The notes under the pieces: model-generated
What the model was told of the DNA's origin: nothing
Seen by the model: the letters and a program-made list of their open reading frames with translations, nothing else
Databases searched by the model: none
Origin: Dehalococcoidia bacterium
GTDB taxonomy: Bacteria > Chloroflexota > Dehalococcoidia > SM23-28-2 > RBG-16-64-32
Direction: 5' to 3'
DNA: 64,000 nucleotides
NCBI GenBank assembly: GCA_034432935.1
Contig: DAOUBD010000005.1
Coordinates: forward strand, 1,054 to 65,053
Program-made: the position numbers and the translations under genes
In this document: in pieces, positions 6,326 to 37,992 of the stretch
How positions within the stretch are numbered: the first letter of the stretch is position 1
How the letters are laid out: each line of letters starts with the position of its first letter

Positions 6326-6326
6326 T

Positions 6327-7118
6327 ATGACGGCAAAGCGCAACAATCACCGCCCACCCCTGCTAGAGGTCCGGGGGCTGCACGCCGGCGCCGGCGACGT
6401 CGAGATCCTGAAGGGCCTCGACCTGACGGTGGACGTAGGGGAGGTGCACGCCATCATGGGCCCCAACGGCAGCGGCAAGAGCACCTTTGCCAGCGTCCTT
6501 GCCGGCCGGCCCGACTACACCGTGACGGCAGGCAGCGTGCTCTTCGAGGGCAAGGACCTCTTGGCCATGCCGGCCGACCAGCGGGCGCTCGAGGGCATCT
6601 TCCTCGCCTTCCAGTATCCGGTCGAACTGCCGGGCGTCCGCACCCGGGAATTCCTGCGGGCTGCCCTGGACGCCGTGCGCGAGCACCGCGGGCTGCCCAA
6701 GCTTAGCGTCCGGGAGTTCAACAAGCTCTTCGAGGAGAAGGCGCGGCAGGTAGAGCTCGCCGCCGATCTCCTCAAGCGTTCCGTTAACGAAGGCTTCTCC
6801 GGCGGCGAGAAGAAGCGCAACGAGATACTGCAGCTGGCCATGCTGGACCCCAAGCTGGCCGTATTGGACGAGACGGACTCTGGCTTGGACATCGATGCTC
6901 TGAAGGTGGTGGCCGAGGGCGTCAACCGCTTTCGCGGGCCGGACAAGGCGATCCTCTTGGTCACCCACTACCAGCGGATACTGAACTACATCACACCAGA
7001 CTTCGTCCACGTCCTCATCGACGGGCGTATAGTACGCTCGGGAGGCAGCGAGCTGGCCCACGAGCTGGAGGCCCGCGGCTACGACTGGCTGCGCGAGGCT
7101 GCTGGCGCGGGCGTGTGA
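6327..7118 (+). CDS. sufC: Fe-S cluster assembly ATPase SufC
   Basis: Walker A GPNGSGKST, ABC signature FSGGEKKR, ~260 aa. Confidence 0.9.
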   Translation: MTAKRNNHRPPLLEVRGLHAGAGDVEILKGLDLTVDVGEVHAIMGPNGSGKSTFASVLAGRPDYTVTAGSVLFEGKDLLAMPADQRALEGIFLAFQYPVELPGVRTREFLRAALDAVREHRGLPKLSVREFNKLFEEKARQVELAADLLKRSVNEGFSGGEKKRNEILQLAMLDPKLAVLDETDSGLDIDALKVVAEGVNRFRGPDKAILLVTHYQRILNYITPDFVHVLIDGRIVRSGGSELAHELEARGYDWLREAAGAGV

Positions 7119-22861: not shown

Positions 22862-22949
22862 TCGCTCCGACCTGTTCGGGCGGCGTTGGAAGGCCGGCCC
22901 GTTTGCCGGAGGCCCGGTCTTGATGGTTTGATGGTCTCTGAAGCGTGCC

Positions 22950-23648
22950 ATGGACCTTATCTGGGATGGCGTCAAGGAGGCCGTCCGCCTCGTCTTTACC
23001 GGCAACGGTTACGTTTACGAGGTGACCTTCACGTCGCTCCTCGTCTCGGGAGCGGCCACGGGCATCGCCGTGGTGGTGGGCCTGGGGCTAGCGTCGCTCC
23101 TCGCCTTCTCGTCGCCGCCGGGGCGCACGGCAGCGATAGGGGTGCTGAATACAGGCATGGCCCTGCCCCCGGTGGTCGTGGGCCTCTTCGTCGCGGTGAT
23201 GTTATGGCGGACGGGGCCCTTCGGACAGCTGCACCTCCTGTACACCCGCTGGGCCATCATCATCGCCCAGGCCATCATCGCCACGCCTGTGGTCACGGCC
23301 CTGGCCGTCGCCGCCCTTCAGAGCCTGCACCCGCGCCTGCGGTTGCAAGTCCTCGCCCTGGGGGCGTCCCGCTGGCAGGCGGCCTGGCTTCTGTTTAGAG
23401 AGGCGCGCCAGTCTCTCATGGCCGCCGTTATCGCCGGCTTCGGGGCCGCCATCTCAGAGGTAGGGGCCACCATCATGGTAGGCGGCAACATAAAGGGGGA
23501 GACTCGCACCCTGACATCGGCTGCCGTCCTGGAGGTGTCGCAGGGGCATCTGGAGACGGCGATGGCGCTATCGTTCATCCTCCTGGCGGTCATCTTTCTC
23601 GTGATCCTCTCCTTCACCCTGGTGCAGCAACGGAGGCCCCGTCCTTGA
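22950..23648 (+). CDS. ABC transporter permease, molybdate/tungstate (ModB/TupB-like)
   Basis: ~6-TM permease of 232 aa, assigned by similarity to tungstate/molybdate permeases. Overlaps the downstream ATPase. Confidence 0.6.
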   Translation: MDLIWDGVKEAVRLVFTGNGYVYEVTFTSLLVSGAATGIAVVVGLGLASLLAFSSPPGRTAAIGVLNTGMALPPVVVGLFVAVMLWRTGPFGQLHLLYTRWAIIIAQAIIATPVVTALAVAALQSLHPRLRLQVLALGASRWQAAWLLFREARQSLMAAVIAGFGAAISEVGATIMVGGNIKGETRTLTSAAVLEVSQGHLETAMALSFILLAVIFLVILSFTLVQQRRPRP

Positions 23649-24751
23649 TGGCGCCTCGTTTGGGTCTGAGGGGCGTGCGGGTGTCCTGGAGCGGGCGCAG
23701 CATCCTCGAGGTGGATTCCCTGGACGTCTTTCCAGGCGAGGTTTTGGCTGTGGTGGGTCCCAACGGGGCCGGCAAGAGCACCCTCTTGCAAGTCATGGCA
23801 CTGCTGCAACGCCCAGGCCAAGGGCAGGTGCTGTTCGATGGCCAGCCGGCCAGGCCGGGTTCGCTGGGGCTCCGCCGGCGGATGGCGATGGTTTTCCAGG
23901 AGCCTTTGTTGCTGGGGGGAACAGTCGGATACAACGTCTGCTGCGGGCTGGCGATGCGGGGGGTGCCGCGGGGTGAGCAGGAGCGGCGGGCGGCGCTCTG
24001 GCTGGAGCGCTTCGGTGTGGCCCACCTGGCCGGCCGGTCTGTGCGGTCGCTCTCCGGTGGCGAGGCGCAGCGGGTAAGCCTGGCCCGGGCCCTGGCGCTG
24101 GAGCCGGAGGTGTTGCTCCTGGACGAGCCCTTCGCGGCCCTGGACGCGCCCACCCGCGGTCTCCTGATGGACGACCTGGACCAGGTGCTGGCGGAGCGCG
24201 GGACGACCACCGTGTTCGTGACCCACGACCGCAACGAGGCGCTGCGCCTGGGGGACAGGGTGGCGGTGCTCATGGGCGGCCGCGTCAGGCAGTGCGGGAC
24301 GCCCTCGGACGTTTTCGCCGCCCCGGCGGACGCCGAGGTGGCGGCTTTCGTGGGTGTCGAGACCATCGTCTCGGGGCAGGTGCGGGAGGTCAGCCAGGGG
24401 CTGGCGCTGGTGGACGTCTGCGGCAGAACAGTGGAGGCGCCGGCAGCCAGCGGGCCCGGGTCCGGCGTCCTGGTCTGCTTGCGGCCTGAGGATGTGGTGT
24501 TGGAAGCGCCGGCGGAGGGCGTAGCTCACAGCAGCGCCCGCAACCGCTTGCCGGCGGTGGTGCGCCGGGCCCTGCCCGCCGGACCCCTCGTCCGGGTGGA
24601 GCTGGACGCGGGTTTTCCGCTGGTGGCCCTGGTCACGAGACAATCAGCTGGCGAGCTGGCCTTGGCCCCTGGCGCGTCTGTGGTGGCATCCTTCAAGGCG
24701 ACGGCGGTGCACCTCATACCGCGGCGCCGGGAAGGCGCCCGCGGTGGCTAA
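23645..24751 (+). CDS. ABC transporter ATP-binding protein with C-terminal TOBE domain (ModC-like)
   Basis: Walker A GPNGAGKST, LSGGEAQR signature and a C-terminal TOBE-like domain. Confidence 0.75.
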   Translation: MMAPRLGLRGVRVSWSGRSILEVDSLDVFPGEVLAVVGPNGAGKSTLLQVMALLQRPGQGQVLFDGQPARPGSLGLRRRMAMVFQEPLLLGGTVGYNVCCGLAMRGVPRGEQERRAALWLERFGVAHLAGRSVRSLSGGEAQRVSLARALALEPEVLLLDEPFAALDAPTRGLLMDDLDQVLAERGTTTVFVTHDRNEALRLGDRVAVLMGGRVRQCGTPSDVFAAPADAEVAAFVGVETIVSGQVREVSQGLALVDVCGRTVEAPAASGPGSGVLVCLRPEDVVLEAPAEGVAHSSARNRLPAVVRRALPAGPLVRVELDAGFPLVALVTRQSAGELALAPGASVVASFKATAVHLIPRRREGARGG

Positions 24752-25479
24752 GGCGACGGCGACGGGAGCTTGGCCAGGAGCCTCAGGTCGTTGCTGATGA
24801 TCCCTTCGGCCCCCAGCTCTAGGAGACGCCGGGCCTCGTCGAGGTCGTCAACCGTCCAACAGTAGGCGCCGATGCGCCGCTCCGCCAGGAAGCGAAGCCT
24901 CTTCTCCGTGGCCAAGCGATGGTGCATGCAGAGCCCTCTTGTGGCCCTGTTGCCCTCGATCATGCGCCTGACTATCGCCCATTGGCTCCGGTGCTCGACT
25001 GAGTAGCGGACCTCGAGGCGTGGCGCCACCTCTCGCACACGGTCCAACACGCCGTATACCTGTCCGCAGACGGCCACCCACGTCTGAGCCCCATACTCCG
25101 TGATGCGGGCGGCAAGCGTGCTGGCGAAAGCGGCGGTCTGCCGCCCGTTATAGTGGCCCTTCACGTCCAGTAACAGCCGTTTCTTGCCCGCCGTGGCCCG
25201 CAGGAGGCCGGCCAGCTTCAAGGGCGGGAATTCCGGCCTCAGGTAGTAGCCCCGCCACAGCGCCAGGCTGAGGGGGAGCAAACGGTGCCCGGCCATCTGC
25301 TTGTCCATCAGCAGCGGCAGGAAGCCCAGCCGGCGCTCGTGCCGCACCCAGATGTCCCCAGCGCGATACCAGATGTCGGCCTCGATGACGTCAATGTCAG
25401 CGGCCAGGGCGCGCCTAAGGAGCCCCGGGTTGTTGCCATAGGCGTGGGCGATGCGCACAGGGCGGAGGGTCTCTCCCAT
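24748..25479 (-). CDS. glycerophosphodiester phosphodiesterase family protein
   Basis: N-terminal IAHAYG...EADIW motif typical of GDPD, 243 aa. Confidence 0.5.
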   Translation of the reverse strand: MGETLRPVRIAHAYGNNPGLLRRALAADIDVIEADIWYRAGDIWVRHERRLGFLPLLMDKQMAGHRLLPLSLALWRGYYLRPEFPPLKLAGLLRATAGKKRLLLDVKGHYNGRQTAAFASTLAARITEYGAQTWVAVCGQVYGVLDRVREVAPRLEVRYSVEHRSQWAIVRRMIEGNRATRGLCMHHRLATEKRLRFLAERRIGAYCWTVDDLDEARRLLELGAEGIISNDLRLLAKLPSPSP

Positions 25480-25496
25480 CTCCCGAGGCGTTGGTG

Positions 25497-25970
25497 CTAG
25501 CGGGCCCGGGCAGCCTCCGAGGCGATGCGCTGAAGCTGCTGGGCGCGGAGCCGGTATTGGGCCGCCGCCATCGCCAATATCTGGCGAAGCGTGTAGGTGG
25601 TGCCATCCTCCGCTGTAGCGGTGCGCTCCAGGTCGGCGGGGACGAGGTCGTGCAGCAGGTTAGTGAAGCGCCGGTGGGCAACTTGCAGCGATATCTTGGC
25701 CTCTCGCAAGGAGAGGAAGTCCGCCTTCTCCAAGCACGGGGGCTGGGGCAGCTTCAGGGCCCGGGCCGCCAGGCGCCCGTAGTAGAAGTTGACCTCATCG
25801 GAGGTGCGTTCCAGAATGCTGCGCACGGAGTCGCCGTTCGCCGCCGCCCGGTCATAGACCGCGGGGTCGCAGACCTCCAGCGCCTCCATGAGGGCGTCCC
25901 TGGAGTCCTCCAGACGGCGGAGGAGCTCTTCGAGTTCGAAGGCCGGCTCGGAGTTTCCCTCGGTGCTCAT
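25497..25970 (-). CDS. DinB/DUF664-family four-helix-bundle protein
   Basis: Weak similarity only, 157 aa. Confidence 0.4.
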   Translation of the reverse strand: MSTEGNSEPAFELEELLRRLEDSRDALMEALEVCDPAVYDRAAANGDSVRSILERTSDEVNFYYGRLAARALKLPQPPCLEKADFLSLREAKISLQVAHRRFTNLLHDLVPADLERTATAEDGTTYTLRQILAMAAAQYRLRAQQLQRIASEAARAR

Positions 25971-26098
25971 CGGAATACTACCTCCAGGGGCTAGGAGCGC
26001 TACAAGGCCATCCCTCTCGCAAGGAACTGAGGGCGCATCAGGTCCGTCCCGTGACGGCTACCAGTATATGAGCGCCTCCAAAGGGCGGCAAGCCAGCG

Positions 26099-26623
26099 TC
26101 AGGGCGGCGTTGGCGCAGACCGGATGCGGGTGCCCTGCTTCTTGAGGATGCGGGTGCTGAACAGGACATCGTGGGGAAGGCCTTCCAGGCCGGCCTCGCG
26201 GTTGATCTCCTGGACCTTGTGCAGCACCTCCTCCTGGGACATGCCGTGGACCATGGCGAACAAGTTGTAGGGCCAGCCAGGCCGGCGTGGCCGCCGGTAA
26301 CAGTGGGTGATCTCCGTCCGTTGCCCCAACCTCGCTCCAACCTCTGATACCCGCTCGTCGGGCACGTCCCACACGGCCATGCCGTTATACCTGACGCCCA
26401 GGGCATAGTGGTTGGGCACCGCCGCCAGGCGCTTGATGATGCGGCGATCCAGGAGAGAGCGCAGCATCGCCAGGACCTCCCCCTCGCCAGTACCCAGTTG
26501 TTCAGCGATCTCCTTCCAGGGCTCGGGGACCAGGGGTATCCCCTCCTGGACGATAAGGAGGAGCTGTCGCTCCAACGGGCTGATGGCAGCCTCCGTACCC
26601 ACGCCTTCCCCCTGTTCCGTCAT
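26099..26623 (-). CDS. Lrp/AsnC-like siroheme decarboxylase subunit (AhbB/NirDLGH-like)
   Basis: Lrp/AsnC-like N-terminal HTH plus a C-terminal domain with ITHCYRRP...YNLFAMVH. It is tandem with, and overlaps, its paralog. Confidence 0.5.
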   Translation of the reverse strand: MTEQGEGVGTEAAISPLERQLLLIVQEGIPLVPEPWKEIAEQLGTGEGEVLAMLRSLLDRRIIKRLAAVPNHYALGVRYNGMAVWDVPDERVSEVGARLGQRTEITHCYRRPRRPGWPYNLFAMVHGMSQEEVLHKVQEINREAGLEGLPHDVLFSTRILKKQGTRIRSAPTPP

Positions 26624-27130
26624 CCCTGGTGTCCCGTAGCGCCGTTCTCGTCAGCGTCCGGCAGCTCGTAGTAGAACTCGACGCGGTATTCCTCCAGGGT
26701 CGGGAGGTTGAGGACCTCGAGGCCAGTCTCCCTCTCGATCTCGCTGATGACGCGCTGCACCGCCTGTGGGTCTTCCGAGGATACGACGAACCACAGGTTG
26801 TAGTGGTGGGTGCGCTCGTAGTTGTGAGAGATCTCCGGGTGGCGGTTGATGGCGGCGATGACCTCGTCCAGCCGTTCGGGGGGTGCGGCCACGGCGGCCA
26901 GGGTGCGCTCTCCCCCCAACTGGGGCGCGTTGAGGATGGCGCCCAGGCGTGTCAGGCCCCCTTCGTCCAGCAGGCGGCGCAGGCGGCGTATCACATCTTC
27001 CTCGGTCGTCCCGACGGCGCGGGCGGCCTCCAGATACGGGCGCGGCGTGAGGGGTATGCCCCTCTGGAGCAGGTTTATGAGGCGCCGGTCGCTGCTATCC
27101 AGATACACCGCGTCATCGATCCTCTGGCGC
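26620..27130 (-). CDS. Lrp/AsnC-like siroheme decarboxylase subunit (AhbA/NirDLGH-like)
   Basis: Contains ISHNYERTHHYNLWFVV. The longest ORF (to 27219) overlaps the acyl-CoA dehydrogenase stop, so the true start is probably internal with a non-ATG codon. Confidence 0.5.
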
Positions 27131-27136
27131 GTGTTG

Positions 27137-28911
27137 TCATACCGAGGCGGGCAGGGCCTCTGGCGGCAGCGGCTGATAGCGGGTGATGGGGGCGAAGAGG
27201 TCCAGCACGGAACGGTCATCGCTGATGGCCCGCATGGGGCCGCTGCGGGCTGCCAGGAGCCGGTCCCGAATGAAGAAGCGGGCGACGGCGGCCTTGCGGG
27301 CTGAGCCTGTCTTCCGCATCTCCTCCTGGGCGGCTTCCAAGAGGAGCGACGCCTGCGTGAGGTCCGAGAGGAAGGATGTCACGCGCCGGGCGTGGAGCTG
27401 CCGCAGGTCGGCGTCTGCTCTAGCCAGGAAGAGGATCATCTCTTGGGCATCGCGCCGGGCCTGGAGCACAGCGTCCTTGAGTTGGGCCAGCGCCGGGTGC
27501 TCGACGCCTGCGAGCGCCCGGTCTACGCGGTCCAGGAGGGCGTCGTGGGCGTTCTCCTTGGCCATGGAGCGCAGGACGTCCAGGCAGATGATGTTCTCGG
27601 TGCCCTCCCAGATGGTGTGGCATTGGGCGTCCCGCAGTTGGCGGGCCGTGGGCCAGGTCTCGACGTAGCCGTTGCCGCCGAGGATTTCCACGGCCTGGCT
27701 GGCCAGCTCCAGGCCGCCGCGGGCGCCCCGGAACTTGGCCAGGGGCACCAGGATGCGGTAGAGGCGGCGGCCCTTTTCGTCTCCGGTGGCCCCGGCTAGG
27801 GAGGCGGCCTCGAAGACCATGGCGGAGGCGCCCTCCAAGGCCACCACCATCTGAACCAGCGTCTCCTGAACCATCGGCAGCTCATCCAGGCGCCGGCCGA
27901 AGGCCGTGCGGTGGGCCGCGTAGATGGCGGCTTCCAGGAAGGAGCGCCGCATGATGCCCAGCCCCATGGTGGCCACCCCCAGGCGCGACCCGTTCACCAT
28001 GCTCATCATGCGGTTGAGGCCCCGTGCCTCGGAGCCGGCGTCGCGGTTAGGGTTGCTCAGGATGTAGGCCTCTGCATCGATGAAATCGACCTCGGCCGTG
28101 GGCACCGAGCGCGTCCCCAGCTTGTCCTTCAGCCGCTTGATGCGGATGCCGTTGCGGGTGCCGTCGGCGCGCTCCGCGGGCACCAGGAAGAGGGCCAGGC
28201 CCCGCACTCCCGCCTCGGCCCCCTCGGGGCGCGCCAGGGTGGCGATGGCCTTGGCGTCAACGTTGGAGCAGAACCACTTGGACCCGTTGAGCAACCAGCG
28301 GTCGCCGTCCCGGCGGGCCACCGTCTCGCTGGTGCCGAGATCAGAACCGCCGCGGATCTCCGTCATGAACATGGCTCCATCCCAGGAGCCGTCGAAGGTG
28401 GGCGATTGGAGGTGTGGCAGCACCCTCTCCTTGATCTCCGGCGAGCCCCAGCGCGAGACCAGGAGCTCGACGCCGCTAGTCATCCCCGTAGCGCACACCA
28501 TGCCGGTGTCGCATTGACTGAGAAGGTAAGTGAAGGCCGAGCCTAGTACTGTGGGGATGGGCTTGCCCCGGCGCGCCGATAGCCCCTGGGGCCCTTCGTT
28601 CCATATGTCGCGCTTGCTCTCGATGGCGTCAGGGTGGTGAACGATGGTGCAGACCTCGTTGCCCCAGGCGTCGTAGCGCTCCAGGCGCGGCGGGTTGCGG
28701 TCGATCACCTCCGCCCGGCGCGCCAGGGGCCCGCCACAGAGTTCGCCCCAGCGCACCAGCGTCTCCTCGGCCCACTCTCTGTCTTCGGCCCCGATGTACC
28801 GGTCCGCTATGTCCCGCAGGTTGGGGTCGATGAGGTACCAGTTGAGTCCTATGGCGGACTCAAAGCTGCTATAGTCGATGCCCTCGCCGTTGCTCCTAAG
28901 CCTATCCATTG
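27137..28911 (-). CDS. acyl-CoA dehydrogenase family protein (AidB-like, long N-terminal domain)
   Basis: ACAD middle and C-terminal domains (GTSETV..., GGNGYVETWP). The start is taken at MDRLRSNG. Confidence 0.7.
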
Positions 28912-29003
28912 TGGCTCTCCTCTCTCTCTCTGCTGCCAGGTTGGTGGTGCGTCCCCTTCCGACTAGTATAGCGCCTGCGATGCCGGGACGCCGGCGCCCG
29001 CCG

Positions 29004-30089
29004 CTACTCCGCTCCAAGAAGCTCCACGTCGAAAATGAGCGTAGCGTTCGGAGGGATCGCCGGAGGGCTGCCAGAGGCCCCGTACGCCAGCTCCGGCGGT
29101 ATGATAAGCCGCCGCTTGCCGCCCACCTTCATGGAGGCGACGCCCTCGTCCCAGCCGGCGATCACCTGGCCCCGGCTCAAGAGGAACGAGAGCGGGCTGG
29201 CCCTGTCGATGGAAGAATCGAATTTGGTCTGGCTGCCGGCGAGCCAACCGGTATACTCCACCGTCACCTTCTGTCCTGGCTGCGGGGCGGGCCCCGTGCC
29301 CTCCTGGATATCGATGTACTGGAGGCCGCTAGGGGTGGTAACGGGCGTGCCGCTCACGGGCGGGGGCGACTCTGGCGCTGGCTCACGCACGTCCACCAAC
29401 TGCACATCCATCACCAGTGTGGCGTTGGGGGGGATGGCCGGCGGCGAGCCCTGCTCACCATACCCCAGGCTGGGTGGTATGAGGAGCTTGCGCCGGCCGC
29501 CGACCCTCATAGTGGCCACACCCTCCTCCCAGCCTTTGATGACCTGGCCGCTGCCCAATCGGAAGCCGAAGGGGCGCCCCCGGGCGACGGTGCTGTCGAA
29601 GACATCGCCCCCTTTGACCTTGCCCACGTAATGCACGACCACCACCTGGCCCTCCTGGGGGGCTGGGCCATCGCCCGTCACGACGTCCACGTACTTCAGG
29701 CCGCTGGGAGTCGTGACGGCCCCGGAGAACTCGTCGCTGCCCCGCAGGGCGGCTGCCAGGACCAGGGCGCCGCCTACCGCCGATGCTAGTCCGCCGGCCA
29801 TCAGGAGCCACGGCAGCCAGGATGGGATGCGGGCCCAGCGGGCCGCCCGCCTCTCCCGCGCCTGCGCCAGGGCCAGGGCCCGCGCCTGGTCGTACGCTGC
29901 CCTCCGGCGCGGGTCGTCGAGCGTATCGAAGGCCTCGTTGATCTCGCGCATCATCGCCGGGTCCCTCGGCGCCTTGTCAGGGTCCGGCTGGTATCGCCGG
30001 GCTAGGCGCTCGTAGGCCTGGGCGATCTGCTCACGGGTGGCCTGGGGTCCAACCCCCAGGACGGCGTAGTAGTCCTTGTGGCTCGTCAC
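29004..30089 (-). CDS. membrane protein: N-terminal J-domain, one TM helix, two FKBP-type PPIase domains
   Basis: J-domain DYYAVLGV...[12 protein letters not shown], a TM helix [25 protein letters not shown], and two FKBP12-like domains ([21 protein letters not shown]...; [21 protein letters not shown]...IFDVELL). Confidence 0.75.
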
Positions 30090-30976
30090 GGCGATGGGCT
30101 GGCTGGAGGCTGCGAGGGAGCACTGGCCGTTGGTACCGGTGTGGCCTTCCTGAAGATATCGACTAATTCGACGTCAAAGATCAACGTGGCGTTGGGCGGT
30201 ATCTTGGGCGGCGAGCCGGTAACCCCGTAGCCTAGCTCGGGCGGGATGATGAGGCGGCGCTTGCCACCCTTCTGCATCGTCGCTAGGCCCTCGTCCCAGC
30301 CCTTGATTACGCTTCCGGTTCCCAGGACGAAGCTGAAGGGGGCGGCGCGCTCCACCGAGCTATCGAACTTCGTGCCGTCGGACTGGAGCCAACCCGTGTA
30401 GTTGACCACGACGGTGTCGCCCGGCGATGGCGGGTCGCCCGTGCCGGGCTGGATATCGATGTACTGGAGGCCAGAGGGGGTGGTGACGGCTTCGCCCGTG
30501 ACCTCTGGCGGGTTGGCCGGCGCCACTCCCGGCGTCTGGGCCGGCAGCGTCGGCGTGGGGCTGGCCGGGGCGACGCTGGCGCTGACCGTGGGCTGGCTGA
30601 CGGCGTTCTGGCCGCCGCCACCGCCGGTGAGGGATGCCACTATGACGGCGATGATGATGAGGACGGCTATGCCGAGGCCGATGCCGCCCAAGAACTCGGG
30701 CCGCGCTAGGAAGTCGGAGAACGCCGACTCCTGCGCCTCGACGGCGGCGCCCGGTTTGCGGCGGGAGCGGCGCCGGTCGTACTCTGCCCGGCGTTTCGGG
30801 TCCTTGAGGACGGCGTAGGCTGCCTGAAGCTCCTCCCAGCGCTGCCGCGCCTTGGGTTTGCGGCTCGTGGCGGGATCGTAAAGGCGCGCCAGCCGCTCGT
30901 ACGCCCGCTCGATCTCCGCCTGGCTGGCCGAGCGGCTCACTTGCAGCACGGAGTAATAGTCTCGCTGTTTCTCCAC
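30086..30976 (-). CDS. membrane protein: N-terminal J-domain, one TM helix, Pro/Thr/Ala-rich linker, one FKBP-type PPIase domain
   Basis: J-domain DYYSVLQV...[13 protein letters not shown] helix [20 protein letters not shown], and an FKBP domain [19 protein letters not shown]...GWDEGLATM...[12 protein letters not shown]. Its start overlaps the upstream paralog's stop. Confidence 0.75.
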
Positions 30977-31097
30977 GTACTGGTACCTCGGAGTTGATCA
31001 GGATCGCCCAACGTGCGGCGTGAGAACATTGTACAGGAACGGCCGTTGAGCGCCACCGTCTGGCTCGCCCGCTGCGGTTGCCTCTTGATCCAGACTG

Positions 31098-32702
31098 ATG
31101 CACCCTATAGCCGTGCCTGCCGCCGATCTGCCAGCCGTGGTCCGGGCGCTCTTGCGCCCTGATGCCTACCTCCACCCGGTGCAGCGCGTGGAGCTCCGCC
31201 AGACTCACATCTCTTTCGTCCTTTTGGCTGGGGAGTACGCCTATAAGGTGAAGAAGGCGGTGAACTTCGGCTTCCTGGACTACTCCACCCTTGCCAAACG
31301 CCGTTTCTACTGCCAGCAGGAGGTATCGCTGAACTCCCGCCTTTGCTCGGGGACCTACCTGGGCGTCGTGGCCGTACGGGAGGAGGCTGGGCGTGTGAGG
31401 ATGGGCGGTTCCGGCAGAACGATAGAGTACGCCGTACAGATGCGGCGCCTTCCGGCCGAGCGCATGATGGACCGTCTGTTGGCCGAAGGCAAGGTGACGG
31501 AAGAGATGGTCCGCAATCTGGCCCGCGTGCTTGCTGATTTCCACGGCCGGGCCGAGACGAACGCCCGAATAGCGGCCACCGGCCTGAAGGGGATCCGCTA
31601 CGCTTGGGAAGAGAACTTCCGCCAGTGGCAGCCCTTCATCGGCCAGACGATCTCGCCGGAGCAGGACGCCGCCCTGCGGGCGTTTGGCCGGCGCTTCTTC
31701 GCGCGCAAGGGGGCCTTCCTGGCGGCCCGCGCGGACGGCGGCCGGGTGCGCGATTGCCACGGGGACCTGCGCTCCGACAGCGTCTGCTTCGTGGACGGCC
31801 TCTGCATCTACGATTGCATAGAGTTCAACCGCCGCTTTCGCTACACGGACGTGGCGGGCGACGTCGGCTTTCTGGCTATGGATCTGGACTACCGGGGCCA
31901 CCCAGAGCTGGCCAGGGCGTTCGTAGATGAATACGTGCGAACCTCGGGCGATGCCGGGCTCCTGGAGGTAATCGATTTCTTCAAGTGTTACCGGGCGGCG
32001 GTCCGCGGCAAGGTGGAGGGCTTCCTTCTGGCGCAGGCGGAGGTGCCGGCCGCGGAGAAGCGCCGCGCCCGGGCTGCGGCCAAGCGCTATTTCGATCTGG
32101 CCTGCCAGTACGCGCGGGCTCACGCTCCTCCCCTCTTGCTCATCACCTGCGGCCTCTCTGCCACCGGCAAGTCCACGCTGGCCCGGGCCCTGGGCCAGAA
32201 GATCGGCGCAGAGGTGATCTCGTCCGACGTCGTACGCAAGCGCTTGGCCGGCCTGGAGCCAACGCAGAGGCGGGAGGAGCCCTTCGGCCGCGGAATCTAC
32301 GGCCCGGAGTTCACGGAGCGCACCTACGCTGCCCTGCTGGATGCCGCGCGGCGCGCCCTGGACGCTGGCCGGCCGGCCATTCTCGACGCCACGTACCTGC
32401 GGCGGACGCACCGGCGCCAGGCGCGGCGGCTGGCGGAGGAGCTGGGCGCTGAGTTCGCCTGCGTCTACCTGCGGGCGGAGGATGCCCTGGTCCGGCGCCG
32501 CATCGAGAAGCGGCTTCGGGAGGGGGCGGACCCTTCGGATGCGGGCTGGAGCGTCTACGTGCGGCAGAAGCGGCGCTTCCAGAGGCCGAGCGAGGTGCCA
32601 GCGGAGCGTCTCATCACGGTGGACGCTGCCCGTCCTGTGGCCGCGCAGGTGCGGGCTGTGCTGGACGCTTTGCGCAGGCTGTCGCCCCACTCGTTGCCCT
32701 AG
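31098..32702 (+). CDS. bifunctional aminoglycoside-phosphotransferase-like kinase / P-loop ATP-binding (AAA_33-like) protein
   Basis: N-terminal half has the APH-like Brenner motif HGDLRSDSV plus DCIEF. C-terminal half has Walker A GLSATGKST and a zeta-toxin/PNK-like fold. Confidence 0.65.
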   Translation: MHPIAVPAADLPAVVRALLRPDAYLHPVQRVELRQTHISFVLLAGEYAYKVKKAVNFGFLDYSTLAKRRFYCQQEVSLNSRLCSGTYLGVVAVREEAGRVRMGGSGRTIEYAVQMRRLPAERMMDRLLAEGKVTEEMVRNLARVLADFHGRAETNARIAATGLKGIRYAWEENFRQWQPFIGQTISPEQDAALRAFGRRFFARKGAFLAARADGGRVRDCHGDLRSDSVCFVDGLCIYDCIEFNRRFRYTDVAGDVGFLAMDLDYRGHPELARAFVDEYVRTSGDAGLLEVIDFFKCYRAAVRGKVEGFLLAQAEVPAAEKRRARAAAKRYFDLACQYARAHAPPLLLITCGLSATGKSTLARALGQKIGAEVISSDVVRKRLAGLEPTQRREEPFGRGIYGPEFTERTYAALLDAARRALDAGRPAILDATYLRRTHRRQARRLAEELGAEFACVYLRAEDALVRRRIEKRLREGADPSDAGWSVYVRQKRRFQRPSEVPAERLITVDAARPVAAQVRAVLDALRRLSPHSLP

Positions 32703-32770
32703 GCCCAGCCCTTCGCCTTGGAGATGCTGGGCGGCGCTCCCCTGGGCATGCGCCCCGTGGGCCGCGGCCC

Positions 32771-32798
32771 TTGACGTGCTGCGGGCACGATGTAAGAT
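32771..32798 (+). promoter_or_regulatory. sigma70-like promoter TTGACG-16 nt-TAAGAT upstream of the GYD gene
   Basis: Read from the sequence. A strong SD (AAAGGAGG) sits 6 nt before the ATG at 32875. Confidence 0.4.
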
Positions 32799-32874
32799 GG
32801 TGCGAGAAGGCTGGAGCGCCGGCCGGCGGAGGGGGAGTGACTGCCGTCCGGCCTAGGCCCAAAGGAGGTAGCCC

Positions 32875-33174
32875 ATGGCCACGTACATCATGCTCAGCAC
32901 CCTGACCGACGAGGGGCGCAAGACGCTGAAGGAGCGCCCAGAGCGCCTCCAGGAGGTAAACCGGGAGATCGAGGCCATGGGGGCCCGCGTAGTGCAGCAG
33001 TACGCCGTCCTGGGCGGCTACGACTTCGTGAACATCATCGAGGCGCCGGACAACGAAACCATCGCCCGCGTCTCGGTGGAGCTGGGCGCCCGGGGCACCG
33101 TGCAGTTGACGACCCTGGCGGCGATCCCCGTCGACACCTTCACCCAGATGCTCAAGGGGCACGCATCGGCCTGA
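32875..33174 (+). CDS. GYD domain-containing protein
   Basis: 99 aa with the GYDF motif (LGGYDFVNIIEAPDNET). Confidence 0.7.
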   Translation: MATYIMLSTLTDEGRKTLKERPERLQEVNREIEAMGARVVQQYAVLGGYDFVNIIEAPDNETIARVSVELGARGTVQLTTLAAIPVDTFTQMLKGHASA

Positions 33175-33182
33175 GGCGCGCC

Positions 33183-34196
33183 GTGGCGGGTTACATCGTC
33201 TTCACGAGGCTGACGCCGGCCGGCCAGAAATCCCTTCGCAACAACCCCAACCGTCTGGCCGAGGTGGCGGCCCAGGTGCGCAGCCTGGGGGTCAAGATCA
33301 CTAGGCAGTACGCCACCCTGGGAGACTACGACTTCATCACCTTCATAGAGGCGCCGGACAACGTGACGGTGGCCAAGGCGGCGGCCGAGATCAGCGCGCT
33401 GGGTACTATGCGCCTGGAGGTCTTCCCCGTCCTGTCCATGGACAGATTCGCCCACCTGCTGCGCCTTCAGCCCTATCGAACGGAGCCCCACCGCTGGCAG
33501 ACGGCCCTTTGGGCGCGGGCCATTCGCCGCGTGTTCCGCTACGTGGCCGCCACCCAGTACGTGCGCCGCTTCTGCCGTCCGCTGACCGTAGAGGGGCGGG
33601 AGAACCTGGAGGGCCTGAAGGGCCCCGCCGTCATCATCGCCAATCACAGCTCGCATCTGGACACTCCCGTGGTGCTCAGCGCGCTGCCAGGACGTATCAG
33701 CAGCCGTCTGGCCATCGCTGCGGCGGCCGATAAGTTCTACGCCTCGCGCCGCAAGTTGGCGTGGCGCTACTCCCTCTTCCTCAACACCTTCCCGGTGCAC
33801 CGCGGCGGCGGGGTCAAGCAGTTGGAGTACCCGCTGTCGCTCTTGGAGCGGGGCTGGTCCATCCTTATCTTTCCTGAGGGTGGCCGGTCCAAGACGGGGC
33901 AGATCGGCCGCTTCAAGGCGGGGCCGGCCATCATGGCCATGGAGGCTGGGGTGCCGGTGGTCCCCATCTACATGGAAGGTTTGCGGGAGATCCTCCCCAA
34001 GGGCTCGCGGCAGCCGCGGCCGGGGCCGGCGGTGGCCCGGATAGGCAGGCCCGTCTCCCTTGCTGGAGCGGCCTCCGTGGCCGAGGCCACGGTCTTGCTG
34101 GAGAACGCCATGCGCTCCCTGGCGGGCTTGCCCCCACGGCAGGCGGCGTCCCCGGCGGCCCAGCCGGGCGGCCTGGGGCAACCTACGGCTGGCTGA
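33183..34196 (+). CDS. fusion protein: N-terminal GYD domain + lysophospholipid (1-acyl-sn-glycerol-3-phosphate) acyltransferase PlsC-like domain
   Basis: Residues 1-95 are paralogous to the upstream GYD protein (LGDYDFITFIEAPDNVT). The C-terminal part has the acyltransferase HX4D motif NHSSHLDTPV and FPEGGRS. Confidence 0.7.
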   Translation: MAGYIVFTRLTPAGQKSLRNNPNRLAEVAAQVRSLGVKITRQYATLGDYDFITFIEAPDNVTVAKAAAEISALGTMRLEVFPVLSMDRFAHLLRLQPYRTEPHRWQTALWARAIRRVFRYVAATQYVRRFCRPLTVEGRENLEGLKGPAVIIANHSSHLDTPVVLSALPGRISSRLAIAAAADKFYASRRKLAWRYSLFLNTFPVHRGGGVKQLEYPLSLLERGWSILIFPEGGRSKTGQIGRFKAGPAIMAMEAGVPVVPIYMEGLREILPKGSRQPRPGPAVARIGRPVSLAGAASVAEATVLLENAMRSLAGLPPRQAASPAAQPGGLGQPTAG

Positions 34197-34899
34197 CGGC
34201 GGCCTGGACCTTGGCCGCCAAGGCGTCCAGGCTCAGGCCTTCGACGGCGCTCGCGAAGGGATTCTGCGGCAGGGCAGACACCTTCCCGCCGTCGCCAATC
34301 CGGTAGTGTCCGGTCCAGGGCTGCGCTTCGTAGGTCCCGGTGACGGCGCCGGCCTTGAGGAAGAGGAGGGCGCGGTCGCCCGGGAGGAGGAGGGGGTCAG
34401 CGTCCGCCACGGCGAGAACGGCGCTGGTCCAGTCGAGATATGGTTGGGGGCCGCCGCCCTGGCGCAAGGTTATGGTAGCGGGAGGGGCGCCTTTGAGGAC
34501 CTGCTGGACTGAGATGGTGACGGAAGCCTGCCACTGGGGCTCGAAGGACACCCCCTGGGCGGTGCCCACCACGATAGCGTCAGCAGCCTGCGCGGCCTCG
34601 GCCAGGGTCGGGTAGGGCGGCGGGTAGTCCGCGCTGAGGGGGACCCTGGGCAGGGAGCTGAGGCCGGCGTCCGGAGAGTTGAACTGGGCCAGCCACTGGG
34701 AGAGCCTGGACTCGAACTCCTTCTGGGAGCTCGCGATGAGGGTCTGGCACTCGGCGCTGGAGAGGCCCTGGCAGGGGTCTTGGGCCTTCGGCTCGCCGCT
34801 CTGGCCGCCAGAGGCGATGGCGTAGACCCCAGCCGCCAGGGCCAGGCCGGCCAGCACGCTGACTATGGCCCCTGCCGTTCGGAGACGCGTAAGCCTCAT
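34183..34899 (-). CDS. secreted/membrane-anchored hypothetical protein
   Basis: Signal peptide or anchor MRLTRLRTAGAIVSVLAGLALAAGVYA. No recognisable domain. Confidence 0.4.
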   Translation of the reverse strand: MRLTRLRTAGAIVSVLAGLALAAGVYAIASGGQSGEPKAQDPCQGLSSAECQTLIASSQKEFESRLSQWLAQFNSPDAGLSSLPRVPLSADYPPPYPTLAEAAQAADAIVVGTAQGVSFEPQWQASVTISVQQVLKGAPPATITLRQGGGPQPYLDWTSAVLAVADADPLLLPGDRALLFLKAGAVTGTYEAQPWTGHYRIGDGGKVSALPQNPFASAVEGLSLDALAAKVQAAVSQP

Positions 34900-35038
34900 G
34901 ATGCCTGCCTCCTTCAGTAAGGCCAGCGGTAGATACAGCGGATGCCCCAGAATAGTGTAGCTGAGCTTGGGCAATCCCAGACGCCTATGTCCACGGCCTG
35001 AGGCCCAACTCGGGGCGGGGTTGTTACTGCCCAGTACA

Positions 35039-35572
35039 TCAGCGCCGTTGGGTTGTCATGGTGGGCGAGACCAAGAGCGTGGCCGTACTCGCGCGCAAAC
35101 AGCCATTGCTGTTGGTCGAAGTAAAGCGGAAAATCCCCCTGTCGATATCTATGTTAGAGTACCATATGTTGATCGCGACCATGTAGCTGAAGCAGACTCC
35201 GGCCGTGTTGCAGTTACTGGTTATGGCCCACCCCGGCGTGGAGGCTTGATCCCTGACGTAAACCCAGGTGTCGTTGGTCTGCGGGGCCCAGTGCAGCATT
35301 TGCGGGCCGTCCGCGTCATTCCGCGCCCACATCGCATTATTGAACGCATCCCACCACCACGCGCGTTGGTCCGAGAACTCGTCGATCAGCCGGACAGGCA
35401 ACCATTGGTCCAGAACCCAGTTACTCCGGCAGAGCCTCGGGGTGCCTGCCTTCCAGCACGTGCCGTAACCCATCGCGTGCCCCGCCTCAGCCGGGCCTGG
35501 GCTGAATACCAATAACCATATTAAGGCGCTTGCTGTCGAAACTGCGCCGTGCCACGCGAGAACCCGCCGCAT
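35039..35572 (-). CDS. small secreted Trp/Cys-rich hypothetical protein
   Basis: Signal peptide ending ...PAEA, with 10 Trp and 7 Cys in the remaining ~150 aa. It lies in a local low-GC stretch. Confidence 0.4.
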   Translation of the reverse strand: MRRVLAWHGAVSTASALIWLLVFSPGPAEAGHAMGYGTCWKAGTPRLCRSNWVLDQWLPVRLIDEFSDQRAWWWDAFNNAMWARNDADGPQMLHWAPQTNDTWVYVRDQASTPGWAITSNCNTAGVCFSYMVAINIWYSNIDIDRGIFRFTSTNSNGCLRASTATLLVSPTMTTQRR

Positions 35573-35709
35573 GGCTATACTGTGTGTGTGTCAAGTGCTG
35601 TCAGTGGCAGAGAAAGGCGATACGAGGACATTGTCGGTTGCACGGGGCAAGAAACGTTTGAAATCGCACTCGGAGACGTACCAAGCGGCTCGGAAGGGCC
35701 AGCGGTTGG

Positions 35710-36903
35710 CTAGCTGCGCCGGGCCGCTCGCCCGGGCCGCTGGGGGGATGGCGCAGGGGCCAGTGCGATGATCTCGCTGGCGCTGCCCTCCGCTAGCTGG
35801 CCCAGGCCGCGCCTCTCGGCTATCACCCTCTGCCCTTCCTCCAGCAAAGCGCTGAGGAACTCCGCCTCCGGCACGACCCTCACCACTTGCCCCTTGCGGA
35901 AGATGGCGCCCCGGCCCTTCCCGGCCGCCAGCCCGACATCGGCATCCCTCGATTCGCCCGGCCCGTTGACGACGCAGCCCATGACGGCCACGGTGATGGG
36001 TTCGCCCAGGGCCTGGAAGTGCGCCTCCACCTGTTTGGCCAGGGGGATCAGGTCCACTTCGATGCGGCCGCAAGTGGGGCAGGCCACGATGGTGGGGCCG
36101 CGCTGGCGCAGGTTGAGCGACTTCAGGATCTCCCAGCAGACGGGCAGCTCCTCGACGGGGTCCGCCGCCAGCGACACGCGGATGGTATCGCCGATGCCCT
36201 CCGCCAGGAGGATGCCGATGCCTACAGCCGAACGCACGCTGCCGGCGCCGGGCGTCCCGGCTTCGGTGACGCCCAGGTGCAGGGGATACGGCACCCGGCG
36301 GGCGATCTCCCGGTAGGCGGCGACCATGGTGGGGACATCGAAGGCCTTAAGGGAGACCTTGATGTCCTCGAAGCCCATCTCCTCCAATATGCCGATCTCC
36401 CAGAGGGCGGCGTCCACCATCCGCCGGGCCTTGCTGGGAGGCATCTCGCCCTCGGCCAGGGGCGGCAAGGGCGGCAGAGAGCCCTCGTTGACGCCCACCC
36501 GGATGGGGATGCCCCGCTCCTTGGCCGCCCTCACCACCTGCCGCACCTTCCCAGGATCCCGGATGTTGCCCGGGTTCAGCCTCAGGCCGTGGACGCCGGC
36601 TTGGATGGAGGCCAGGGCCAGGCGATGGTCGAAGTGGATGTCCGCTATGATGGGCACCGGAGTCCGGCGCACGATCTCCGGCAGCGCCTCCGCCGCTTGG
36701 CGGTCCGGCACGGCCACCCGCACGATCTCGGCGCCAGCGTCTGCCAGGCGGGCGATCTGCTCGACGGTGGCCTTGGCGTCGGCGGTATCGGTGTTGGTCA
36801 TCGTTTGCACCACGATGGGTGCGCCGCCTCCCACCTGTACGCCGCCCACGAAGACGGGCCGTGAGGGCCTGCGGGGCGCCAGGGGCGTGGTTCCCTCCGT
36901 CAT
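35710..36903 (-). CDS. ispG: 4-hydroxy-3-methylbut-2-en-1-yl diphosphate synthase (flavodoxin)
   Basis: VQSMTNTDT and CPTCGR motifs. The true start is MTEGTTP at 36903 (ATGA overlap with the rseP stop), and the in-frame upstream ORF extension is spurious. Confidence 0.9.
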   Translation of the reverse strand: MTEGTTPLAPRRPSRPVFVGGVQVGGGAPIVVQTMTNTDTADAKATVEQIARLADAGAEIVRVAVPDRQAAEALPEIVRRTPVPIIADIHFDHRLALASIQAGVHGLRLNPGNIRDPGKVRQVVRAAKERGIPIRVGVNEGSLPPLPPLAEGEMPPSKARRMVDAALWEIGILEEMGFEDIKVSLKAFDVPTMVAAYREIARRVPYPLHLGVTEAGTPGAGSVRSAVGIGILLAEGIGDTIRVSLAADPVEELPVCWEILKSLNLRQRGPTIVACPTCGRIEVDLIPLAKQVEAHFQALGEPITVAVMGCVVNGPGESRDADVGLAAGKGRGAIFRKGQVVRVVPEAEFLSALLEEGQRVIAERRGLGQLAEGSASEIIALAPAPSPQRPGRAARRS

Positions 36904-37992
36904 TCGAATAGGCTCCGGCCGCTGATGATGCGGATGATATCGAAGTAGGTGACGACAACGGCCATGGTGATGATGATAGCCAGGCCGATGAGGTGGACGA
37001 TGGCCTCCTTCTCTGGCGCGATGCGCTTGCCGCCCCGGGCGATCTCTATGAGCACGAAGGCGATTCGCCCGCCGTCCAGCATGGGCAGCGGGAGGATGTT
37101 GATGATGGCCAGGTTGATGGAGAGGAGGGCTGCGAAGTCCAGCAAGGTCTGCCAGCCTGACTCCTGAACCACCTCGCCGGTGGCCTGGGCGATGCCGACG
37201 GGGCCGGCTACATCCGGCCCAGAACCGCCGTGGAACATGGCCACGATCTGGTTTCGAGCCAGGATCAGGGAGTCCCAGGTGGCTGTCCACCCCTTGGGCA
37301 GGGCCTTCCAGAGCGGGTAGCTCTCAGTATCGTGGAACTGGGGGTACTTGTTGGCGATGATAATCCCCGTGGGGCCCTGCCCCGAAGGCGGCGCCCAGCG
37401 GGCTTTGACCGGGACCTCCAGGACCTGCGTCTGTCCGCCGCTGCCCAGGACCTGGCGTTTCACGGTGAATTTGACGGTCTCCCCCATGTTCAGGCGGATA
37501 AGGCGCCCCACCTCTTGCGTGTTCTTCACGGACTCCCCGTTCAGGGCCAGGATGGTGTCTCCGGGTTGCAGGCCGGCCTCCGCCGCCGGCGAACCCTGGG
37601 CCACGGCCTCGATGACAGCCGGTCCCACGGGCACCTGACGCGGGATCATGAAGGCGATGGCGAAAAGGATCACCGGCAGGATGAAGTTCATGCCGGACCC
37701 CGCGCCCAAGACGATGAGACGCTTCCAGGCCGCCTGGGCCGCCAGGCTCTGAGGGTCGGACGGGTCTTCTTCCCCCAGGAGCCTCACGAAGCCGCCCAGG
37801 GGCAGCCAGTTGATGGAGTAGAGGGTGCCTTTCCAGTTGAAGCCCCAGATGCGAGGCGGATACCCGAGCCCCGCTTCCAGCACCTTCACCTTGAACAGCT
37901 TGGCGGTGATGTAATGGCCCAGCTCGTGGAAGACGATGAGGCCCACCAGCATGGCCAGGAAGGGCAAGACGGAGTAAATCACACCCGCCATA
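36900..37992 (-). CDS. rseP: RIP metalloprotease RseP (site-2 protease, M50)
   Basis: HELGHYITAKLF zinc motif, a PDZ domain and the LDGGR motif. The start is taken at MAGVIYSVLPF. Confidence 0.8.

Follow-up and report, generated by a model that had tools for sequence, protein, structure and literature searches.

A frameshifted matrixin-like metzincin gene beside an NTR/TIMP-fold gene in a Dehalococcoidia contig: a probable degenerate copy of a conserved two-gene operon

A Two-Gene Locus Next to ispG

We analyzed a stretch of 64,000 nucleotides (nt) from a Dehalococcoidia bacterium (Chloroflexota; GenBank assembly GCA_034432935.1, contig DAOUBD010000005.1), referred to here as the window, and in it two neighboring minus-strand open reading frames (ORFs) of 177 amino acids (aa) and 238 aa (p238). 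The locus is probably a degenerate copy of a conserved operon combining a metzincin protease with a TIMP-fold protein, p238 being the partner of the protease. The 177-aa ORF, initially annotated as a Trp/Cys-rich hypothetical protein, is the front of a frameshifted and active-site-mutated matrixin-like metzincin gene, its product being that of a truncated pseudogene. The features of the locus, all on the minus strand, are as follows.

34183-34899: p238, intact 238-aa ORF (ORF list of the window)
34908..34913: AGGAGG Shine-Dalgarno sequence, within the 14-nt gap from the restored metzincin stop to the p238 ATG
34914..35138: 3' portion of the metzincin gene, read in the -1 frame, with active-site helix, Met-turn and C-terminal disulfide motif
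35039-35572: 177-aa ORF (ORF list of the window)
35061..35093: degenerate zinc motif REYGHALGLAH, read from the sequence; first-His codon CGC (Arg) at 35091-35093
35135..35139: frameshift site, GACAGGGGGATTTT in the window (G5 run) versus GACAGAGGGGATTTT in the intact ortholog
35139..35572: 5' part of the metzincin gene, with signal peptide and the N-terminal beta-sheet/helix half of the catalytic domain, to ...NIDIDR
35581..35595: conserved CTTGA(CA)n element just 5' of the metzincin ATG (seen when L001 and L002 are aligned with the window)
35710-36903: ispG, 397 aa (the real ispG ORF)

Frameshift and Reconstruction of the Metzincin Gene

In the 177-aa ORF, the first 145 residues are the N-terminal portion of a 219-aa metzincin, and the other 32 are read out of frame up to a stop at 35039. 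The N-terminal part starts with a Sec-type signal peptide (about residues 1-30, MRRVLAWHGAVSTASALIWLLVFSPGPAEA). Searches of the raw 177-aa and 238-aa ORFs against Pfam, NCBIfam and PDB sequences gave no match, and a word-indexed protein search found only two relatives for the 177-aa ORF, both near-identical, and five for the 238-aa ORF. Protein P0002 (contig L001) is 91% identical to the 177-aa ORF as far as IDIDRG, where the two diverge. P0002 continues in frame after IDIDRG with AHEYGNALGLAHH...ALMYW, and past the divergence point its sequence DFPLYFGQQQWLFAHEYGNALGLAHHNDPTALMYW...RWPY contains the metzincin zinc motif and Met-turn. DNA alignment of the window with L001 and L003 revealed that one A is lost in the window between 35138 and 35139 (GACAGGGGG compared to GACAGAGGGG in L001), and the same 1-nt deletion is present in the independent assembly L003 (SRR11582145, 99% identical). 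The -1 frame of the window reads GDFPLYFDQQQWLFAREYGHALGLAHHDNPTALMYW...GIRCIYRWPY and terminates at a stop codon (34914-34916) 14 nt before the p238 ATG.

The 74-aa C-terminal segment alone matched the Pfam family Matrixin (PF00413; 24.9 bits, cutoff 24; E = 2e-5) and aligned with the zinc site, active-site helix and Met-turn of MMP-20 and MMP-8. The reconstructed full-length protein and P0002 scored 22.9 and 23.2, respectively, against the same cutoff. Matches of the two parts to a hidden Markov model (HMM) of the family abutted exactly, with the N part at positions 11-157 (E = 1.5e-41) and the C part at positions 157-224 (E = 6.6e-23), the catalytic-domain coding sequence being interrupted at profile position 157 by the deletion. 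The reconstructed 219-aa protein, which has 18 Trp and 6 Cys, aligned end-to-end across the frameshift with an intact 216-aa protein from an unrelated contig (L084; 33% identity, E = 2e-29) that carries a canonical HESGHGMGLAH. The window has REYGHALGLAH instead of HExxHxxGxxH, and the first zinc His replaced here by Arg is invariant in a 60-member family alignment. The Met-turn ALMYW is present in the -1 frame and aligns with ALMYP of MMP-20 and MMP-8. By sequence, the gene descends from a metzincin and no longer fits the catalytic definition of one, apparently inactivated twice, by the His-to-Arg change at the first zinc ligand and by the 1-nt deletion. The L001 ortholog is an intact ORF with HEYGN, its second zinc His changed to Asn (L001 about 905-940). 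The ratio of nonsynonymous to synonymous substitution rates (dN/dS) between the window and L001 was 0.16-0.24 in the N-terminal part and 0.26 in the post-frameshift part read in the restored frame, compared to 0.04-0.13 for neighboring genes. The value of 0.26 indicates that purifying selection acted on the C-terminal half during most of the divergence and that the frameshift is recent.

It is highly improbable that the gene is intact or rescued, either because the deletion is an assembly error or because of programmed -1 frameshifting or slippage on the G5 run. P-site tRNA-Gly slippage on G GGG would give ...IDRGDFPLYF..., as in L001, and the dN/dS of the downstream segment speaks in the same direction. 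However, the deletion also occurs in an independent run (L003), and it removes an A flanked by G residues, unlike the miscounting of a homopolymer. The site lacks an X XXY YYZ slippery heptamer, the rest of the family is encoded by single ORFs, and a full-length product would still have Arg at the invariant first zinc ligand; on these three grounds programmed frameshifting was rejected as the principal explanation.

The initial annotation was right that both ORFs exist, that both products are destined for export or the cell surface (each has an N-terminal hydrophobic export signal), and that the neighbor has paired Cys, p238 having exactly two. The 10 Trp and 7 Cys it reported for the 177-aa ORF were counted here as 13 Trp and 5 Cys. 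It had found no recognizable domain in this ORF, which was an artefact of the frameshift, as the adjoining -1 frame matches the PF00413 zinc site, and the proposed novel effector or bacteriocin-like protein is replaced by the N-terminal portion of a matrixin-like metzincin. Both genes, placed upstream of ispG in that annotation, lie downstream of it, ispG being on the minus strand.

The Metzincin Family

A HMMER search with P0002 returned 163 cluster representatives (91 at E <= 1e-10), most of them 215-250 aa long with end-to-end matches. All family members were labeled "hypothetical", and cluster look-ups returned no names or taxonomy. The motif HExxHxxGxx[HD] was present in 113 of 148 members. 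Apart from the first His, the Glu, the Gly, the Met of the Met-turn and one Trp were invariant in the 60-member alignment, and the other two zinc His and six Cys were conserved at 90% or more. PF00413 was matched by 54 of these 60 members at E <= 0.01, the lowest E being 4.9e-8. The family profile also matched the catalytic domains of MMP-10 and MMP-8 among PDB sequences (E about 5e-9) over profile positions 50-192, nearly the full domain. An AlphaFold2 model of P0002 had a predicted local distance difference test score (pLDDT) of 94.3 and a predicted template modeling (TM) score of 0.91. All of the top 50 Foldseek matches of this model were karilysin, which came first, or MMPs (MMP-1/2/9/13 among them), with TM-scores of 0.5-0.6, consistent with a predicted MMP-type catalytic-domain fold.

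The signal peptide runs straight into the catalytic domain (...AEA/GHAMGYGTCW...), and no PRCG motif of a cysteine-switch propeptide (PRCGxPD) was found in the window metzincin. The best explanation, and on the whole a likely one, is that the ancestral product of the first gene was a Sec-secreted matrixin-like zinc metalloprotease of about 220 aa with no propeptide and three disulfides.

The Partner Protein p238

The N-terminus of p238 contains an uncharged run (residues 8-32) with an AIA/S site, and this run may act either as signal peptide or as signal anchor. It is followed by a linker with the only two Cys of the protein (C43, C51), a long helix (48-71) and a beta-rich NTR/TIMP-type OB-fold domain (about residues 85-236). 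No Cys is conserved across the family. The 50-60 residue linker/helix between the anchor and the NTR domain carries the conserved motifs NPDAGLSD and SLPR. The family motif is PLLLPGDRAxLFL, and K136, G137, PLLLPG-R (169-176), G197, Y199 and F215 are invariant.

Foldseek analysis of a p238 model returned NTR/TIMP-superfamily structures for all of the top 21 matches, with agrin NtA first (E = 8.8e-6), and the model superposed on N-TIMP-3, TIMP-1, TIMP-2 and other NTR modules. The predicted domain is an NTR/TIMP-like OB fold, a five-stranded barrel with flanking helices, closer to NTR modules than to a generic OB fold. A profile search of the PDB gave only a sub-threshold agrin NtA match (E about 0.7) over the region equivalent to the fold match. 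A Pfam/NCBIfam search of p238 at E <= 1 gave no match, hence no TIMP-family (PF00965) membership by sequence, and hhalign of the p238 family against N-TIMP-1/2/3, with TIMP sequences typed in rather than drawn from a database, gave a probability of 0.13%. The NTR-like domain begins about 85 residues into the protein, and there is no mature N-terminal Cys1. Judging from the model, p238 has a TIMP-type fold lacking the Cys1 wedge and the disulfides of TIMPs. Without an N-terminal wedge any inhibition must use another element, and we speculate that the invariant PLLLPGDR loop is a candidate.

Linkage of the Protease and Partner Genes

Gene order across contigs points to a conserved, unannotated two-gene operon that recurs in environmental bacteria. 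The L084 metzincin gene precedes a distant p238 homolog (38% identity). JGI metagenomes were scanned with the p238 alignment and the flanks of the matches were profiled for metzincin. A p238-family gene was located immediately 3' of a metzincin gene in L001, L084, L090 and L091. The two genes share an ATGA stop/start overlap in L090, and in L091 they are separated by 1 nt, with a TGA at the invariant Trp codon (371-373) of the metzincin. In a reverse test, six independently chosen metzincin members (P0012, P0161, P0164, P0158, P0171, P0170) on ten contigs (L098-L107) were inspected, and each was followed directly by a p238-family gene (profile E between 1e-77 and 1e-21). Their zinc motifs were canonical HExxHxxGxxH except in L107 (HEFGHTLMLGH, with Met for the conserved Gly). 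Linkage from protease to partner was therefore seen in 11/11 distinct loci, with spacers of 0-41 nt, stop/start overlaps included, except for L103/L104, where 193 nt separate the called genes. The metzincin/p238 junction of the window reads TAC TGA AGGAGGCAGGCATC ATG, and p238 appears translationally coupled to the metzincin gene.

An intact protease gene was found beside only about half of the sampled p238-family genes. Members without an intact metzincin occur in L002, L087, L089, L086, L094, L096 and L097, and in L093 (1218-1889) and L095 (3134-3805) only 19 C-terminal metzincin residues (…PPCSGTFGQGGVKCIYNFN) are left, fused to an unrelated hydrolase-like N-terminus. The protease gene has decayed independently in several lineages with the TIMP-fold gene left intact.

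Small GerE/LuxR-type helix-turn-helix (HTH) genes (56-76 aa, one of 217 aa), usually divergent, were located just 5' of most intact cassettes (L098-L101 and L103-L106) and are likely dedicated regulators. None was found near the cassette in the window. Positions of these genes include the following.

L098: 1040-1270
L103: 3414-3611
L105: 3727-3939 and 914-1567
L106: 3568-3738

In L105 (1577-3357) the neighbors of the cassette are a tandem pair of HtrA-like (Trypsin_2-PDZ) protease genes, a gene for a GerE regulator and one for a PemK toxin, which suggests a setting of envelope proteolysis or stress.

Base Composition, Distribution and Mobility

The GC minimum of the 64 kb is at 34900-35700 at each interval size tried, with GC of 0.563 (300 nt, at 34901), 0.588 (500 nt) and 0.592 (660 nt, at 35051) compared to a mean of 0.670 for the whole window (standard deviation, SD, 0.033 for 300 nt and 0.025 for 660 nt). 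The dip is about 3.1-3.2 SD under the mean. Five further 300-nt intervals go down to 0.583-0.587, and several other spots reach 0.58-0.61 across scales. The p238 gene is not low (GC 0.706; third-position GC, GC3, 0.879), and the low-GC islet is essentially the metzincin gene and its two short flanks. First-position GC (GC1) of the metzincin is 0.49, the lowest among 55 ORFs of the window, and its GC3 is 0.76 compared to 0.839 ± 0.034 for the window ORFs, with two other genes equally low. Metzincin genes of the family have GC of 0.55-0.60 and GC1 of 0.46-0.57 in every host examined (host GC 0.59-0.67). As the dip comes mainly from GC1, it is largely an amino-acid-composition effect of the protease family. 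In the window/L001 lineage the GC3 of the metzincin is 0.72-0.77 compared to 0.85-0.88 for p238, and this modest, lineage-specific deficit could reflect relaxed selection. The low GC is weak evidence for transfer, and recent horizontal transfer was rejected as its main cause.

Judged by ispG, the window belongs to an uncultured Dehalococcoidia/Chloroflexota lineage of high GC, and its best species representative is 82% identical. In the species-level relatives L004-L014 (ispG 64-82% identical) the conserved cdsA-dxr-rseP-ispG block ends at ispG. The cassette is absent downstream of ispG in these contigs, and nothing in window positions 22000-35700 is syntenic with them beyond ispG. As the cassette sits at this operon and synteny boundary, and the region beyond ispG is non-syntenic in distant relatives, no clean insertion is demonstrable. 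Only the closest relatives share the cassette, L001 and L003 fully and L002 in part. L002 retains ispG, the CTTGA(CA)n element, the first 12 or so metzincin codons (MRAVARWGAVGG...) and the p238 ortholog p241; in place of the metzincin body it has (5240-6957) an 82-aa ORF and a lipoprotein-like, Pro/Thr-rich ORF of 283 aa. The metzincin slot (window 34900-35600 compared to L002) is a rearrangement hotspot. Elsewhere the same cassette occurs in unrelated genomic contexts, which supports reading the pair as an accessory module. No mobile-element genes flank the cassette in the window, and an integrase was seen near it only in L103. A tblastn search of both proteins against 50,697 phage genomes (INPHARED) and a PHROGs search gave no match, and IMG/VR contained no p238 relatives, only generic small metzincins without the partner. 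Viral contigs L108-L111 from IMG/VR (GC 0.39-0.66) encode metzincin-like ORFs of 195-200 aa with HExGHxLGL that are only distantly related and have no p238-like partner.

We consider very unlikely the model that follows from the initial annotation, in which the locus would be a low-GC islet gained by recent horizontal transfer and its two genes would encode novel secreted proteins without a known domain, be they effectors, bacteriocin-like or of the cell surface. This proposal has on its side the position of the GC minimum, the absence of the cassette 3' of ispG in L004-L014, its varied contexts elsewhere with the one nearby integrase, and the low GC3 of the metzincin relative to p238. However, the domains are recognizable after frameshift correction, the dip is GC1-driven and a family-wide property, the GC3 of p238 is native, and neither a clean insertion nor flanking mobile-element genes can be pointed to in the window. 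Of the proposed islet, the GC dip itself is real and the metzincin gene is low in GC, whereas p238 is not. The pair is an accessory module. Syntenic orthologs next to ispG exist in L001, L003 and partly L002, but not across the wider lineage.

CTTGA(CA)n is a possible promoter element. The CA unit occurs about 5 times in the window, some 6 times in L001 (about 400-420) and some 12 times in L002 (about 5230-5270), and a variable CA tract beside a -35-like TTGACA could change promoter spacing (phase variation?) or could be a mere slippage-prone microsatellite. A scan of 34100-35800 for consensus promoters and terminators found nothing.

Proposed Role of the Partner

In the model we favor, p238 would be the cognate binding partner of the metzincin, most likely a cell-surface inhibitor or latency factor shielding the producer from a protease that has no prodomain, in the manner of potempins, AprI and TIMPs, and it would persist as an "orphan" once the protease is lost. 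Within this overall model, we regard a protective inhibitor or latency role as about evenly balanced. The role is favored by the lack of a prodomain in the protease, by a partner that is exported and probably anchored, and by the established inhibition of metzincins by barrels of the NTR/TIMP and OB-fold kind (TIMPs; PotA on karilysin). It is also favored by the linkage pattern, in which the protease never occurs without the partner and the partner often outlives the protease, as expected if losing the partner first is harmful.

Several points weigh against this model. Binding or inhibition of the protease by p238 is something we infer. The p238 model has a pLDDT of 77.5 and an alignment of only six sequences behind it, and p238 has neither the N-terminal Cys1 wedge nor the conserved N-domain disulfides on which TIMP inhibition relies. 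An NTR domain need not mean an inhibitor, as that of PCPE-1 inhibits none of the tested metzincins, and in the one bacterial pair characterized so far, that of Listeria, the Tim protein is cleaved by its metzincin Mtz and is a cell-wall effector, not a demonstrated inhibitor (PMC8235301). With regard to the protease, the L001 ORF is intact with Asn at the second zinc His and dN/dS is well below 1, and the proteins of this clade could have shifted to a non-catalytic role rather than simply decayed. Low-level -1 slippage on the G5 run is also conceivable.

The Listeria pair gives rise to an alternative in which p238 is a substrate and effector, the metzincin cleaving the anchored TIMP-fold protein and the fragment remodeling the envelope; in the window the effector could no longer be released, the protease being dead. 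We consider this unlikely. The architecture matches (a secreted metzincin, a gene for an anchored TIMP-fold protein without its own promoter, and a small HTH regulator upstream in many loci), and the linker/helix motifs NPDAGLSD and SLPR of p238 could hold a cleavage site. However, about half of the sampled p238-family genes have no intact metzincin, whereas a p238 accompanies each metzincin, an asymmetry more in keeping with a protective partner than with an effector in need of activation, and homology to the Listeria pair is not established (no match to PHROGs, the phage collection or an IMG/VR cassette).

Neighboring Genes

On the plus strand, a 99-aa GYD protein gene (32875-33174) is followed after an 8-nt gap by a gene for a 337-aa protein (33183-34196), forming a tandem GYD pair. 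The 337-aa protein is a GYD domain fused to a PlsC-type acyltransferase (PF08734 and PF01553), and the 3' end of its gene overlaps the convergent p238 3' end by 14 nt (34183-34196). The tandem arrangement is kept in L001 and was not found near ispG in more distant relatives. Very long antisense or 5'-extended ORFs at 30360-32690 (-), 35710-37290 (-) and elsewhere are typical high-GC artefacts and not genes, examples being a 776-aa ORF opposite an AAA_33 kinase gene and a 526-aa GTG-start extension through ispG.

Significance

TIMPs have been seen as an innovation of animals. The literature knows no other endogenous proteins that inhibit MMPs, and it presents inhibitors co-transcribed with bacterial peptidases as a rarity (PMC9890683). 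A metzincin/TIMP-like pairing has already been published for Listeria and other Firmicutes, and the family described here is a second one, not annotated by sequence. No model for its partner protein exists in Pfam, NCBIfam or PHROG, carriage of the family by phages was not detected, and its protease is more MMP-like and rich in disulfides. A tentative and rather doubtful proposition is that the MMP-like protease and its NTR/TIMP-fold partner belong to a dedicated operon of ancient origin that is widespread among uncultured bacteria of the environment (Chloroflexota and others). If the partner is a true inhibitor without the Cys1 wedge, for example via the PLLLPGDR loop, it would represent a new inhibitory mechanism on a TIMP scaffold, and this would suggest that the metzincin-NTR partnership either predates the animal MMP/TIMP system or was transferred into it. 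The repeated decay of the protease beside an intact partner would then parallel orphan immunity genes. The intact pairs in L098, L102, L105 and L107 are candidates for studying how a Cys1-less NTR domain controls a prodomain-less matrixin, and they bear on a possible bacterial origin of MMP/TIMP-type partnerships. The locus in the window is itself a decaying remnant of little functional consequence, and its value is as the thread that exposed the family. For annotation, the lesson is that what looked like a "novel Trp-rich secreted protein" turned out to be a frameshifted pseudogene.

Comparison With Known Systems

NTR/TIMP domains were noted in "various Eubacteria" by Leclère and Rentzsch (2012), citing Brew and Nagase (2010). 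A close parallel in architecture is the Mtz-Tim pair of Listeria monocytogenes (LMRG_00713/LMRG_00714), with counterparts in Bacillus, Brevibacillus, Lysinibacillus and Clostridium (Boichis et al., 2021; PMC8235301). For Listeria it was proposed that Mtz cleaves anchored Tim and that the released fragment alters the cell wall; the TIMP-like fold of Tim was called by Phyre2 at a low confidence of about 60%, and the authors could find no TIMP-like structure from bacteria on record before theirs (PMC8235301). Both systems have a Sec-secreted metzincin (HExxHxxGxxH/D, Met-turn) followed by an exported TIMP-like-fold gene without its own promoter, kept as a unit, and a small HTH regulator upstream. 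The Tim proteins of non-Listeria Firmicutes also resemble p238 in having a signal peptidase I (SPI) signal rather than a lipobox. The likeness is one of architecture. Proteases of the window family are matrixin-like, carry six conserved Cys and have a Met-turn of the ALMYW type, whereas Listeria has AIMLD, and p238 has a long N-terminal hydrophobic segment and no lipobox. Regulators of the window family are of GerE/LuxR type, with none in the window, whereas that of Listeria is an XRE CI/Cro protein. No phage or mobile-element association was found for the window family, its hosts are high-GC environmental bacteria including Dehalococcoidia, and the window copy is a pseudogene.

Compared to the animal MMP/TIMP system (MEROPS M10A/I35), the protease profile covers nearly the whole MMP catalytic domain and the models superpose on MMP-1/8/9/13. 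The proteases of the window family differ from MMPs in having neither a cysteine-switch propeptide nor a hemopexin domain, and in three disulfides foreign to MMPs. p238 in turn differs from TIMPs in the approximately 85 residues before its NTR domain and in lacking the Cys1 wedge, the TIMP disulfides and sequence similarity, so that any inhibition would need a different mechanism.

Two bacterial protease-inhibitor systems also resemble the locus. The serralysin-type AprA-AprI/Inh system shares a secreted metzincin co-encoded with a small exported beta-barrel inhibitor, but the inhibitor is an eight-stranded barrel, the protease belongs to M10B with RTX repeats and type I secretion, and no match in sequence or fold to the window family was found. 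The KLIKK-peptidase/potempin system of Tannerella forsythia shares a bicistronic arrangement of a secreted peptidase and a surface-anchored OB-fold barrel (PMC9890683). In that system PotA specifically inhibits the MMP-like karilysin, encoded in the same operon, and protects the surface of the producer (Ksiazek et al., 2022; PMC9890683), and the metzincin model of the window family finds its best structural match in karilysin.

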